Below the pieces are notes generated by a model. It was not told the DNA's origin, did no database searches, and saw nothing but the letters and a program-made list of their open reading frames with translations. A stretch of DNA of 64,000 nt from Escherichia coli (GTDB lineage Bacteria > Pseudomonadota > Gammaproteobacteria > Enterobacterales > Enterobacteriaceae), in the NCBI RefSeq assembly GCF_003334785.1, contig NZ_QOWV01000002.1; one strand, written 5' to 3'. Positions 38,983-41,893 of this stretch are shown piece after piece (position 1 is the stretch's first letter; the number at the start of each line of letters is the position of its first letter). The position numbers and the translations under genes are program-made.

Positions 38983-39301
38983 AGTAGTCTCCTGAGGTTT
39001 TATTAGAATCATTATGTTTGAGCGTAGCGTTGGTAACGCTACCAGGCGCGTGAATGTTACCCCATTTTATGTATGGACATGTAGTGAAAACTACAACCTT
39101 GTCGTTCGCTTTGGCATCATTTTCATTATAAAGACGGAATTTTGCATCAGCTTCTCATCAAGAAAAACAACTAAAAAATCAATCACAATACTTGTGCATT
39201 TCTTTAAACAGTTTTTAAAAACTGACTCCGGGTATGGAGCTATGGGTATTTTCTGTACCCAATGCTTTTAACAGCAATTAATTTCATAGGATGAAAGCTC
39301 A

Positions 39302-41893
39302 ATGCATCAATCTGGTTCTGTTTCTCTTTGTCGTTCCGCAATATCTGTTCTGGTGGCTACAGCGTTATATTCACCCATAGCATTGGCATCAACTGTTGAG
39401 TATGGTGAGACAGTTGATGGTGTTGTCCTGGAAAAAGATATCCAGCTGGTTTATGGGACCGCCAATAATACGAAAATCAATCCTGGCGGAGAACAGCATA
39501 TAAAAGAATTTGGTGTAAGTAATAATACTGAAATTAACGGAGGGTATCAGTACATTGAAATGAATGGCGCCGCAGAATACTCAGTATTAAATGACGGTTA
39601 TCAAATTGTTCAAATGGGTGGCGCGGCAAACCAGACTACGCTCAATAATGGTGTGCTACAGGTTTATGGCGCAGCGAATGATACCACGATTAAAGGCGGG
39701 CGCTTAATCGTTGAAAAAGATGGGGGGGCCGTCTTTGTCGCTATCGAAAAGGGAGGACTACTGGAGGTTAAAGAGGGGGGATTTGCATTTGCGGTAGATC
39801 AGAAAGCAGGCGGTGCTATTAAAACAACCACGCGGGCCATGGAGGTATTCGGAACAAACCGTCTCGGTCAGTTCGATATCAAGAATGGTATTGCTAATAA
39901 TATGTTGTTGGAAAACGGCGGAAGTTTGCGAGTTGAAGAAAATGACTTCGCTTATAATACCACTGTAGATAGTGGCGGCTTACTGGAGGTTATGGATGGC
40001 GGGACTGTAACTGGCGTTGATAAAAAAGCAGGCGGAAAATTAATTGTCTCAACGAATGCGCTGGAAGTGAGTGGTCCAAACAGTAAAGGCCAATTTAGTA
40101 TAAAAGATGGTGTGTCAAAAAATTATGAACTGGATGATGGTTCCGGGCTCATTGTTATGGAGGACACGCAGGCCATTGATACTATCCTTGATAAGCATGC
40201 CACTATGCAATCGCTGGGAAAGGATACTGGTACGAAAGTGCAGGCAAATGCGGTATATGATCTCGGTCGATCATATCAGAATGGAAGTATCACGTATTCC
40301 TCAAAAGCCATCTCTGAAAATATGGTTATCAACAATGGCCGCGCTAACGTCTGGGCTGGCACAATGGTTAACGTTTCAGTCAGAGGGAATGATGGCATTC
40401 TTGAGGTCATGAAGCCGCAAATAAATTATGCACCCGCAATGTTGGTGGGTAAGGTAGTGGTTTCTGAGGGCGCTTCTTTTAGAACGCATGGTGCCGTGGA
40501 TACCAGCAAAGCGGACGTTTCGCTCGAAAATAGCGTATGGACCATCATTGCCGATATCACTACGACGAACCAAAACACCCTCCTCAACTTAGCCAACCTT
40601 GCGATGTCTGACGCAAATGTGATTATGATGGATGAGCCAGTGACTCGTTCATCAGTGACGGCAAGTGCGGAAAATTTCATTACGTTGACCACCAATACCC
40701 TGTCGGGAAACGGCAATTTTTATATGCGTACCGATATGGCTAATCATCAGAGCGATCAGCTCAACGTCACCGGTCAGGCAACAGGTGATTTCAAAATATT
40801 CGTGACGGACACCGGTGCCAGCCCGGCAGCAGGAGATAGCCTTACACTGGTAACAACGGGCGGCGGTGATGCTGCATTTACGTTGGGCAATGCCGGAGGC
40901 GTTGTTGATATCGGTACGTATGAATATACCTTGCTGGATAATGGCAACCATAGCTGGAGTCTGGCAGAGAATCGCGCGCAAATTACCCCTTCAACCACTG
41001 ATGTGCTGAATATGGCGGCCGCACAACCGCTGGTATTTGATGCAGAACTGGACACCGTGCGTGAGCGTCTTGGTAGCGTAAAAGGCGTTAGTTACGATAC
41101 GGCGATGTGGAGTTCGGCAATTAACACCCGCAACAACGTGACCACTGATGCGGGAGCTGGTTTTGAGCAAACATTGACGGGCCTGACGCTCGGTATCGAT
41201 AGCCGTTTCTCCCGTGAAGAAAGCAGTACAATTCGCGGCTTGATCTTTGGTTACTCTCATTCTGATATTGGTTTTGATCGCGGCGGCAAAGGTAATATCG
41301 ATAGCTATACCCTGGGGGCTTATGCCGGTTGGGAGCATCAGAACGGTGCCTATGTTGATGGGGTGGTGAAAGTTGACCGTTTTGCCAACACCATCCATGG
41401 CAAGATGAGTAATGGGGCAACAGCGTTTGGCGATTACAATAGTAACGGCGCGGGTGCTCATGTTGAGAGCGGGTTCCGTTGGGTTGACGGATTGTGGAGT
41501 GTTAGACCCTATCTGGCCTTTACCGGCTTTACCACAGATGGTCAGGACTACACGTTATCAAACGGCATGCGCGCGGATGTGGGAAATACCCGGATATTAC
41601 GCGCTGAAGCGGGAACGGCGGTAAGCTATCACATGGACCTGCAAAACGGTACGACGCTGGAACCCTGGCTGAAAGCGGCCGTGCGTCAGGAATACGCCGA
41701 TTCTAACCAGGTGAAAGTTAATGACGATGGCAAATTTAATAATGATGTGGCTGGAACCAGTGGCGTTTATCAGGCTGGTATAAGGTCATCGTTTACCCCG
41801 ACGTTAAGCGGTCATTTGTCAGTCAGCTATGGCAATAGCGCAGGGGTAGAATCGCCGTGGAATACTCAGGCGGGTGTGGTCTGGACGTTCTGA
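39302..41893 (+). CDS. yejO: Autotransporter (type Va) adhesin-like protein YejO, apparently intact
   Basis: 863-aa ORF; signal peptide, repetitive Gly/Asn-rich passenger, C-terminal beta-barrel ending ...GVVWTF. Confidence 0.85.
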   Translation: MHQSGSVSLCRSAISVLVATALYSPIALASTVEYGETVDGVVLEKDIQLVYGTANNTKINPGGEQHIKEFGVSNNTEINGGYQYIEMNGAAEYSVLNDGYQIVQMGGAANQTTLNNGVLQVYGAANDTTIKGGRLIVEKDGGAVFVAIEKGGLLEVKEGGFAFAVDQKAGGAIKTTTRAMEVFGTNRLGQFDIKNGIANNMLLENGGSLRVEENDFAYNTTVDSGGLLEVMDGGTVTGVDKKAGGKLIVSTNALEVSGPNSKGQFSIKDGVSKNYELDDGSGLIVMEDTQAIDTILDKHATMQSLGKDTGTKVQANAVYDLGRSYQNGSITYSSKAISENMVINNGRANVWAGTMVNVSVRGNDGILEVMKPQINYAPAMLVGKVVVSEGASFRTHGAVDTSKADVSLENSVWTIIADITTTNQNTLLNLANLAMSDANVIMMDEPVTRSSVTASAENFITLTTNTLSGNGNFYMRTDMANHQSDQLNVTGQATGDFKIFVTDTGASPAAGDSLTLVTTGGGDAAFTLGNAGGVVDIGTYEYTLLDNGNHSWSLAENRAQITPSTTDVLNMAAAQPLVFDAELDTVRERLGSVKGVSYDTAMWSSAINTRNNVTTDAGAGFEQTLTGLTLGIDSRFSREESSTIRGLIFGYSHSDIGFDRGGKGNIDSYTLGAYAGWEHQNGAYVDGVVKVDRFANTIHGKMSNGATAFGDYNSNGAGAHVESGFRWVDGLWSVRPYLAFTGFTTDGQDYTLSNGMRADVGNTRILRAEAGTAVSYHMDLQNGTTLEPWLKAAVRQEYADSNQVKVNDDGKFNNDVAGTSGVYQAGIRSSFTPTLSGHLSVSYGNSAGVESPWNTQAGVVWTF

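Follow-up and report, generated by a model that had tools for sequence, protein, structure and literature searches.

In Escherichia coli K-12 MG1655, yejO (b2190, "adhesin-like autotransporter YejO") is annotated as a two-fragment pseudogene split by the insertion sequence IS5K, as is also described in the literature (PMC11005336; PMC11677980). The E. coli locus analysed here lies within a contiguous 64-kb stretch of DNA, referred to below as the window, and carries yejO as an uninterrupted reading frame. The locus raises the question of whether this strain has retained a potentially expressible adhesin gene, as the initial annotation proposed, and what kind of protein the intact gene encodes, where it came from, and whether it is likely to be used. 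The features discussed are as follows.

38335..38982, minus strand: narP, nitrate/nitrite response regulator, divergent from yejO (ORF; RefSeq annotation of FDAARGOS_1248)
38983..39301, no strand: divergent narP/yejO intergenic spacer, 319 bp, AT-rich (36.4% GC), IS-free
39302..41893, plus strand: yejO, intact gene of a predicted type Va autotransporter (863-aa ORF, ATG start)
39302..39388, plus strand: predicted Sec signal peptide, aa 1-29, ending in PIALA before ST (translation read by eye)
39365..39368, no strand: TTAT, the 4-bp target duplicated around K-12 IS5K, unoccupied in the window (junction alignment, excision test)
39452..40246, plus strand: AIDA-type strand-loop-strand repeats, aa 51-315 (Pfam PF16168, TIGR04415)
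40292..40591, plus strand: hypervariable part of the passenger, aa 331-430 (comparison with E. albertii and with divergent E. coli alleles)
40592..40966, plus strand: pertactin-like C-terminal passenger (autochaperone-type) domain, aa 431-555 (PF03212, 3.2e-45)
41105..41824, plus strand: autotransporter beta-barrel translocator domain, aa 602-841 (PF03797, 8.8e-45)
41903..41936, no strand: hairpin with a 15-bp stem, directly 3' of the yejO stop codon
41956..41984, no strand: hairpin with a 12-bp stem, between an A-run and a T-run
41996..42072, minus strand: proL, tRNA-Pro(GGG) (ARAGORN and Rfam)

The intact yejO allele and the IS5K insertion of K-12

The full-length reading frame first noted in the window is intact and has an identical copy in an independent genome, as the yejO DNA is 100% identical to that of the complete genome FDAARGOS_1248, where the product is annotated as "autotransporter YejO" (WP_021544686.1). 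The protein shares 97.6% amino acid identity with the sequence that represents P0002, a cluster built at 90% identity with 16,859 member sequences, in which the 863-aa form is dominant. Near-identity to named YejO proteins, together with the position between narP and proL, places it in the YejO orthologous group, and no observation speaks against that identification. The chance that an assembly or sequencing artefact masks a disruption is negligible: a 3801-bp query of the yejO region matched an independently assembled complete genome at 100% and several more genomes that annotate an intact gene at 99.9% or above, and no supporting point for an artefact was found. The surroundings are likewise as first described, with a 319-bp spacer devoid of insertion sequences on one side and, on the other, a tRNA-Pro gene separated from yejO by a 102-bp gap containing the two hairpins. 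The start of narP in the window is the annotated one (MPEATPF), and the gene differs from K-12 narP by 2 SNPs.

The statement in the initial annotation that MG1655 has an IS5 copy in this neighborhood, with yejO a pseudogene, was correct, although the copy does not lie where the emphasis on the spacer had implied. Junction alignment puts the K-12 IS5K (1195 bp) immediately after window position 39368, 67 bp past the first base of the yejO start codon, at codon 22/23 and within the signal peptide; IS5 has been reported inside yejO in direct orientation (PMC11677980). The uninterrupted spacer does not set this strain apart from K-12, because the MG1655 spacer (2290181-2290499) is the same IS-free 319 bp. 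K-12 MG1655 thus shares the locus, the narP spacer, and the downstream proL with the window, but its yejO is not intact, as IS5K splits the ORF. IS5 terminal repeats, which were expected to be absent, were not found anywhere in the 64-kb window, even with 2 mismatches allowed.

After removal of IS5 and one TTAT copy from the K-12 sequence, 3 SNPs in 6801 bp separate it from the window, and the sole residue difference in YejO is S846G. Over the whole window, identity to K-12 is 99.92-99.98% in three blocks, and the only structural difference besides IS5 is a 339-bp REP325 copy-number difference. The IS5K site is uninterrupted in 5046 of the 5426 complete E. coli genomes (93%), so retention of the intact gene is not special to this strain. 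The K-12 yejO-IS5 junction is present in 357 of these genomes, and among the matches listed every carrier is a laboratory strain of K-12 type (ER1709, DH10B, Stbl4, XL10-gold, MG1655, and MC4100). Precise excision of IS5 was also considered as a source of the IS-free site, and is very unlikely given the uninterrupted site in most genomes and in E. albertii. The intact locus is an already documented, ordinary allele, and we are highly confident that the window holds the ancestral, uninterrupted form of yejO, and that its strain is phylogroup-A-like and near-identical to K-12 across the region. On this account, the K-12 pseudogene is a lineage-specific accident, in which IS5K landed at codon 22/23 and the rest of the gene stayed intact.

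Architecture and relatives of the YejO protein

The N-terminus of YejO, examined by eye, has an arginine at position 11 and a hydrophobic segment (aa 13-28), with A-L-A at aa 27-29 and then S30. The passenger carries AIDA-type repeats, which TIGR04415 recognises with 65.3 bits (cut-off 30); the strongest PF16168 copies occupy aa 184-245 and 257-315 (8e-24 and 2e-21) and are accompanied by weaker ones. In the PDB, these repeats are related to Ag43, to an AidA-I family adhesin, and to TibA, and the pertactin-like domain is related to pertactin and Vag8. At the C-terminus, NCBIfam TIGR01414 spans aa 456-863 with 367.6 bits (cut-off 16), and the barrel is matched by that of BrkA (3qq2). The polypeptide accordingly combines a C-terminal barrel with a passenger that is beta-helical by homology to the solved passengers of Ag43, TibA, and pertactin. 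The fold class is fixed by these matches to solved passengers and barrels and, at the level of sequence, YejO belongs with the classical monomeric (type Va) autotransporters, among those with repeats of the AIDA-I/Ag43/TibA type.

YejO shares the type Va architecture and the AIDA strand-loop-strand repeats with Ag43/Flu, AIDA-I, and TibA, and its matches to the solved passengers of Ag43, the AidA-I family, and TibA are significant (E-values from 1e-36 to 5e-28). However, it is not an orthologue of Ag43 (NF033177, 130.7 bits against an equivalog cut-off of 1200) or of AIDA-I (NF033176, 73.8 bits against the same cut-off of 1200), and its 863 aa do not reach the length of either family profile (948 and 1287 positions, respectively). 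Unlike AIDA-I/TibA-type systems, yejO has no adjoining heptosyltransferase gene of the aah/tibC type, as its flanks are narP on one side and proL/yejM on the other. With the Bordetella proteins pertactin, BrkA, and Vag8 (E-values 6e-18, 1.5e-18, and 4.6e-35), YejO shares the pertactin-type C-terminal passenger and a homologous beta-barrel, whereas it differs from them in the AIDA repeats of its N-terminal passenger, in organism, and in genomic context.

By analogy with the family, the Sec signal peptide would carry YejO into the periplasm, the C-terminal beta-barrel would enter the outer membrane, and the repeat-rich, beta-helical passenger would be threaded outward and displayed at the surface. 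There, to judge from the family, its function would most likely be that of an adhesin or an aggregation factor. Literature searches combining yejO with H-NS, adhesin, or biofilm found no functional characterisation of the intact protein.

Selection, inactivation, and origin of yejO

E. albertii has a syntenic dsbE-ccmH-narP-yejO arrangement. A scan of GTDB species genomes with the YejO protein returned E. albertii only, by a method that needs exact peptide words; a homologue search with YejM listed at least 120 matches, all near-identical E. coli proteins. Compared with the E. albertii gene, the dN/dS of yejO is 0.198 overall, 0.047 in the barrel, and 0.098 in the pertactin domain, and ranges across domains from 0.05 to 0.27, a comparison of coding sequences that indicates long-term purifying selection. 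In the hypervariable segment aa 331-430, amino acid identity is 34% with E. albertii and 72-75% with divergent E. coli alleles, against 92-98% in the barrel.

Within E. coli, some part of the yejO locus was found in all 5426 complete genomes, and the gene has been inactivated in several ways. The B2/UPEC strains carry a remnant with two deletions and a stop codon, and ST131 is reported to lack yejO (PMC5654935). According to a passage in PMC3426408, which cites Wells et al. (2010), YejO occurs in the genomes of commensal and diarrhoeagenic strains, and UPEC genomes carry a truncated form. Other lineages have an IS1 insertion, the nonsense change Q48*, or a common form of 771 aa that is cut short in the barrel, and further alleles have in-frame deletions of aa 168-241 (recurrent), 241-280, or 632-665. 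The repeated inactivation in other lineages argues that yejO is dispensable in many niches.

Part of the initial annotation was the suggestion that yejO was acquired horizontally long ago, and a specific form of this idea is that the gene is an ancient islet that entered via an attachment site in proL, with its low GC content and position as traces. The gene is indeed AT-richer than its surroundings, with 48.1% GC (46.5% in the passenger part) against 51.5% for the window. Its GC3 of 0.465, compared with 0.556-0.613 in narP, ccmH, and yejM, is the compositional contrast with flanking genes expected of a genomic island, and the spacer has a still lower GC content. Moreover, the dS of yejO relative to E. 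albertii (0.83) exceeds that of neighbouring genes (0.37-0.61). The status of proL as a typical integration point is well founded, and yejO is situated on its 3' side, the exact place where islands are integrated in other strains. In strain 08-00022, an 11-kb island with integrase, primase, capsid-protease, and PerC genes lies between yejO and proL, and the match to the window stops at 42018, the 23 nt at the 3' end of proL (41996-42018) being the attachment site for islands elsewhere. In Shigella, the gtrIC prophage has tRNA-Pro and yejO as its borders, Salmonella SPI-12 adjoins proL, and genes for a phage-type activator, SSB, and primase are located downstream of yejO in E. albertii.

On the other hand, there is no integrase or mobility gene between narP and proL, nor any integrase ORF as far as yejM, and the 23-nt proL end occurs once in the 64 kb, even with 3 mismatches allowed, which leaves yejO without the direct repeat of a tRNA-linked island. 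The low GC3 may also be explained by weak expression and codon bias, or by repeats rich in Asn, Thr, and Ile. Since yejO is syntenic in E. albertii and all complete E. coli genomes compared have some part of the locus, any acquisition predates the split of the two species. Composition and position thus fit an old acquisition, while the missing integrase and att repeat and the syntenic E. albertii gene, itself under purifying selection, count against it; a horizontal origin is plausible but unproven, and entry through proL in particular seems doubtful.

Expression and possible role of YejO

Although the reading frame is intact, it may be cryptic, that is, ordinarily silent (e.g., by nucleoid-protein silencing of the AT-rich promoter region) and drifting toward loss. 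A scan of 38900-42150 for sigma-70 consensus promoters gave nothing above threshold in the narP-yejO spacer, and no promoter can be named for yejO because the 3 matches in the whole scan were below the shuffle expectation of 5.4. Silence would be in keeping with other autotransporter adhesins of K-12, among them YfaL, YpjA, and YcgV, which stay cryptic until their expression is forced, and drift toward loss would agree with the multiple inactivations that arose independently within E. coli. RNA-seq compendia of K-12 place yejO near the bottom of all genes in detection (PMC10392735), but this rank says little about intact alleles because the K-12 copy is disrupted by IS5. Against a cryptic gene, the low dN/dS across domains relative to E. 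albertii points to a protein maintained by long-term selection, the full-length form dominates its large protein cluster, and the literature search on yejO with H-NS found no data on H-NS binding or silencing. We regard a cryptic yejO as a serious possibility, to which we give somewhat less than even chances.

The remaining signals around the gene are few. An AGGA Shine-Dalgarno sequence precedes yejO at 39288-39291, within the spacer. The spacer is 81% identical to that of E. albertii, and its narP-proximal 110 bp are nearly invariant. An Rfam scan of the whole window placed no RNA family within the spacer or yejO. An 85-aa ORF in the spacer (39014-39271, plus strand) was rejected as a gene, as the RefSeq annotation of the identical FDAARGOS_1248 does not list it and its frame is broken by a 1-bp indel in the alignment with E. 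albertii. A terminator-like hairpin also lies 5' of yejO (39243-39261), with a stem partly kept in E. albertii and a T-tract that is not conserved. Downstream, the RNA fold of 41890-41995 has an energy of -37.1 kcal/mol (z = -7.05), and the hairpin at 41956..41984 is likely a bidirectional intrinsic terminator common to yejO and proL.

A more far-reaching reading takes YejO to be a functional adhesin exposed to the host in the gut, the loss of which is favoured in extraintestinal and laboratory lineages as a pathoadaptive or anti-virulence change. The basis for this reading is the combination of independent inactivations, purifying selection that dates back to the divergence from E. albertii, and the hypervariable segment of the passenger. 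We consider it improbable, but if it were true, the window strain and K-12 as an isogenic pair would be a natural tool for testing pathoadaptive loss. For the ordinary, ancestral allele that the window most probably represents, the locus confirms that yejO is a pseudogene in K-12 through an IS5K insertion into signal-peptide codons that is specific to that strain. As judged from these sequences, yejO is intact and probably functional in strains closely related to K-12. Work on YejO should therefore start from an allele of this kind or, alternatively, from a K-12 strain repaired by the removal of 1199 bp.

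The yejO locus and the position of IS5K

As the initial annotation claimed, yejO in the window is a full-length open reading frame; it lies between narP and the tRNA-Pro gene proL, with 102 bp separating its stop codon from the tRNA.

Features of the locus and other RNA features (window coordinates unless marked MG1655)
38335–39012, minus strand: narP open reading frame, annotated start (MPEATPF...) at 38982 (open reading frame list and annotation)
38983–39301: narP-yejO spacer, 319 bp, 36.4% GC, from the annotated narP start to the yejO start
39302–41893, plus strand: yejO, ATG start, 863 aa (six-frame open reading frame list)
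41903–41936: strong hairpin in the yejO-proL gap (RNA folding)
41956–41984: second strong hairpin in this gap, A-run and T-run on either side (RNA folding)
41996–42072, minus strand: proL, tRNA-Pro, anticodon GGG (ARAGORN and Rfam agree)
12794–12984, plus strand: rcsC-rcsB spacer, two further naRNA4/REP-type units (expected K-12-type RNA feature)
16645–16738, minus strand: MicF, adjoining ompC (expected K-12-type RNA feature)
45788–45813, minus strand: L25 (rplY) leader (expected K-12-type RNA feature)
MG1655 2286390–2288914: yejO fragment 2
MG1655 2288919–2290113: IS5K, 1195 bp, carrying insH8
MG1655 2290114–2290180: yejO fragment 1, 67 bp

The spacer measures 319 bp because it is counted from the annotated narP start at 38982 and not from the open reading frame end at 39012. 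A reasonable Shine-Dalgarno sequence (AGGA, 39288–39291) precedes the yejO ATG, and a promoter scan found no sigma-70 consensus in this spacer. An inverted repeat, TGGGTA-N7-TACCCA (39243–39261), located about 40 bp upstream of the start codon, may serve to bind a regulator or may form a hairpin in the 5' UTR; it is partially conserved in E. albertii, where the T-tract is not. The yejO-proL gap folds with an energy of -37.1 kcal/mol (z = -7.05), and its hairpin at 41956–41984 shows the A/T-run pattern expected of a bidirectional terminator. On the other side of narP, the ccmH-narP spacer contains a REP/BIME insert of approximately 176 bp (38145–38320; REP core GCCGGATGCGGCG at 38184), with a copy of the hairpin GCCCGATGG..CCATCGGGC on either side. 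The insert is also found in E. albertii, and the B2 strain UPEC-774U has one hairpin and a 34-bp gap in its place.

The reference record annotates MG1655 yejO (b2190) as a pseudogene joined from two fragments and split by IS5K, which bears out the initial annotation on the IS5 copy in K-12 and on the pseudogene status of yejO there. The element had nevertheless been misplaced: junction alignment and scripted excision put the insertion inside the open reading frame, after window position 39368, where codon 22/23 belongs to the predicted signal peptide. The IS-free narP-yejO spacer that was highlighted is genuine but not distinguishing, since MG1655 narP starts at 2290500 and the spacer there is likewise exactly 319 bp and IS-free; it is yejO itself that is not intact in MG1655. 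The target duplication, TTAT (window 39365–39368), does not fit the usual IS5 target consensus, YTAR. CTAA/CTAG sites are mentioned for other IS5 copies, and the same source places IS5 inside yejO in direct orientation (PMC11677980). IS5K is elsewhere described as close to the yejO start codon in K-12 (PMC11005336).

Without IS5 and one TTAT, the K-12 locus differs from the window by 3 SNPs over 6801 bp, and the repaired yejO encodes an 863-aa protein that differs only by S846G. Over the full 64 kb, identity is 99.92–99.98% in three blocks, and the only structural differences are IS5K and a 339-bp difference in a REP325/naRNA4 array. No IS5 end was found anywhere in the window, as had been anticipated. 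The array occupies the mqo-eco spacer (24754–25062), with three tandem units of approximately 113 bp (Rfam RF02564) in the window and three extra units (+339 bp) in a K-12 MG1655 derivative.

Domain architecture and selection on YejO

Domains of YejO and dN/dS (Nei-Gojobori, window versus E. albertii)
aa 1–29: predicted signal peptide (...PIALA|ST), read by eye from the translation only
aa 184–245 and aa 257–315: two strong AIDA repeats (Pfam); AIDA repeats, dN/dS 0.27
aa 431–555: Pertactin domain (Pfam, 3e-45); dN/dS 0.098
aa 602–841: Autotransporter beta-domain (Pfam, 9e-45); barrel dN/dS 0.047
yejO overall: dN/dS 0.198
narP, ccmH, and dsbE: dN/dS about 0.02–0.03

Weaker AIDA repeat copies precede the strong pair (Pfam), and the NCBIfam models for the autotransporter barrel (TIGR01414, 367.6 bits versus a cut-off of 16) and the strand-loop-strand repeat (TIGR04415, 65.3 versus 30) both matched. 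The solved structures nearest by sequence are Ag43, Vag8, an AidA-I family adhesin, TibA, the BrkA barrel, and pertactin. Together these matches show that YejO is a classical type Va autotransporter with a passenger of AIDA-type repeats. Although related to Ag43 and AIDA-I by sequence, it is an orthologue of neither, as its scores against the NCBIfam equivalog models (130.7 and 73.8 bits, respectively) fall far below the cut-off of 1200. By analogy with the family, YejO would reach the periplasm by Sec export, the barrel would enter the outer membrane, and the passenger would be translocated and fold as a beta-helix, where it may mediate adhesion or aggregation at the surface.

The E. albertii orthologue has 862 aa (76% amino acid identity) and retains the dsbE-ccmH-narP-yejO order. 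The low dN/dS values show that selection has kept the protein, and it changes faster than its neighbours, as is usual for surface proteins. Residues 331–430 (window 40292–40591) are hypervariable, with 34–37% identity to E. albertii and 72–75% among divergent E. coli alleles, compared to 92–98% for the barrel; the saturated dS across this region (3.7) hints that alleles have been replaced or that selection is diversifying. In a K-12 RNA-seq compendium, where the copy is IS-disrupted, yejO is among the least-detected genes (PMC10392735). No paper characterising intact YejO was found in the literature searched.

The proL integration slot and the origin of yejO

The annotation also suggested that yejO is an old horizontal acquisition beside an integration point. 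The gene is indeed AT-richer than its neighbours (48.1% GC; GC3 0.465 versus 0.556–0.613 for narP, ccmH, and yejM), which weakly backs acquisition, and its position agrees with this, given that islands actively integrate at proL. In E. coli 08-00022, an 11-kb island (L006 24246–34547) separates yejO from proL and encodes an integrase, a DNA primase, a ClpP-like prohead protease/capsid fusion, an Icd-like protein, and a PerC-family regulator. Homology with this strain breaks at window position 42018, which identifies the 23-nt 3' end of proL as the att site. In E. albertii, phage-type activator, SSB, and primase genes lie downstream of yejO (L005 7978–10404), with no tRNA within 4 kb; both islands are phage-satellite-like and fill the yejO-proL slot. 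The Shigella flexneri 1c gtrIC prophage has tRNA-Pro at one edge and yejO at the other, and Salmonella SPI-12 adjoins proL. However, yejO itself lies outside the islands, the locus retains neither an integrase nor an att repeat, and the gene is older than the split of E. coli and E. albertii. An ancient acquisition is a plausible but rather unlikely origin for yejO. The initial interpretation is only partly supported; the observation of an intact gene is confirmed.

Distribution of intact and broken alleles

Of 5426 complete E. coli genomes, 5046 show no break within the initial 139 bp of yejO, and 357 carry the K-12 yejO/IS5 junction; the K-12-type strains among the matches listed were laboratory strains, namely ER1709, DH10B, Stbl4, XL10-gold, MG1655 derivatives, and MC4100. 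In 4280 genomes a single stretch covers 80% or more of the 3.8-kb locus. In most of the others the locus survives as a decayed remnant, as in B2-type strains such as UPEC isolates, Nissle, and O25b:H4. UPEC-774U, for example, lacks window positions 39704–40857 and 41235–41863 and has a stop at codon 68. Other disruptions include an IS1 insertion (match H11) and Q48* in 08-00022.

At 90% identity, the 863-aa form belongs to a protein cluster of 16,859 member sequences, and a common 771-aa form stops within the barrel, at residue 788. An in-frame deletion of 74 aa (aa 168–241, window 39803–40024), which removes one passenger repeat module, recurs in other alleles (L004, P0020, P0066, and P0097), giving proteins of 789–799 aa. 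Other alleles lack aa 241–280 or aa 632–665. This length variation is repeat-mediated and typical of AIDA-type passengers.

The pattern of intact and disrupted alleles is already on record: ST131 lacks yejO (PMC5654935), and a passage in PMC3426408 citing Wells et al. (2010) describes YejO in commensal and diarrhoeagenic genomes and its truncation in UPEC. In this strain yejO, an already known gene, is in its normal condition, and both its disruption in K-12 and its truncation in UPEC have been published.
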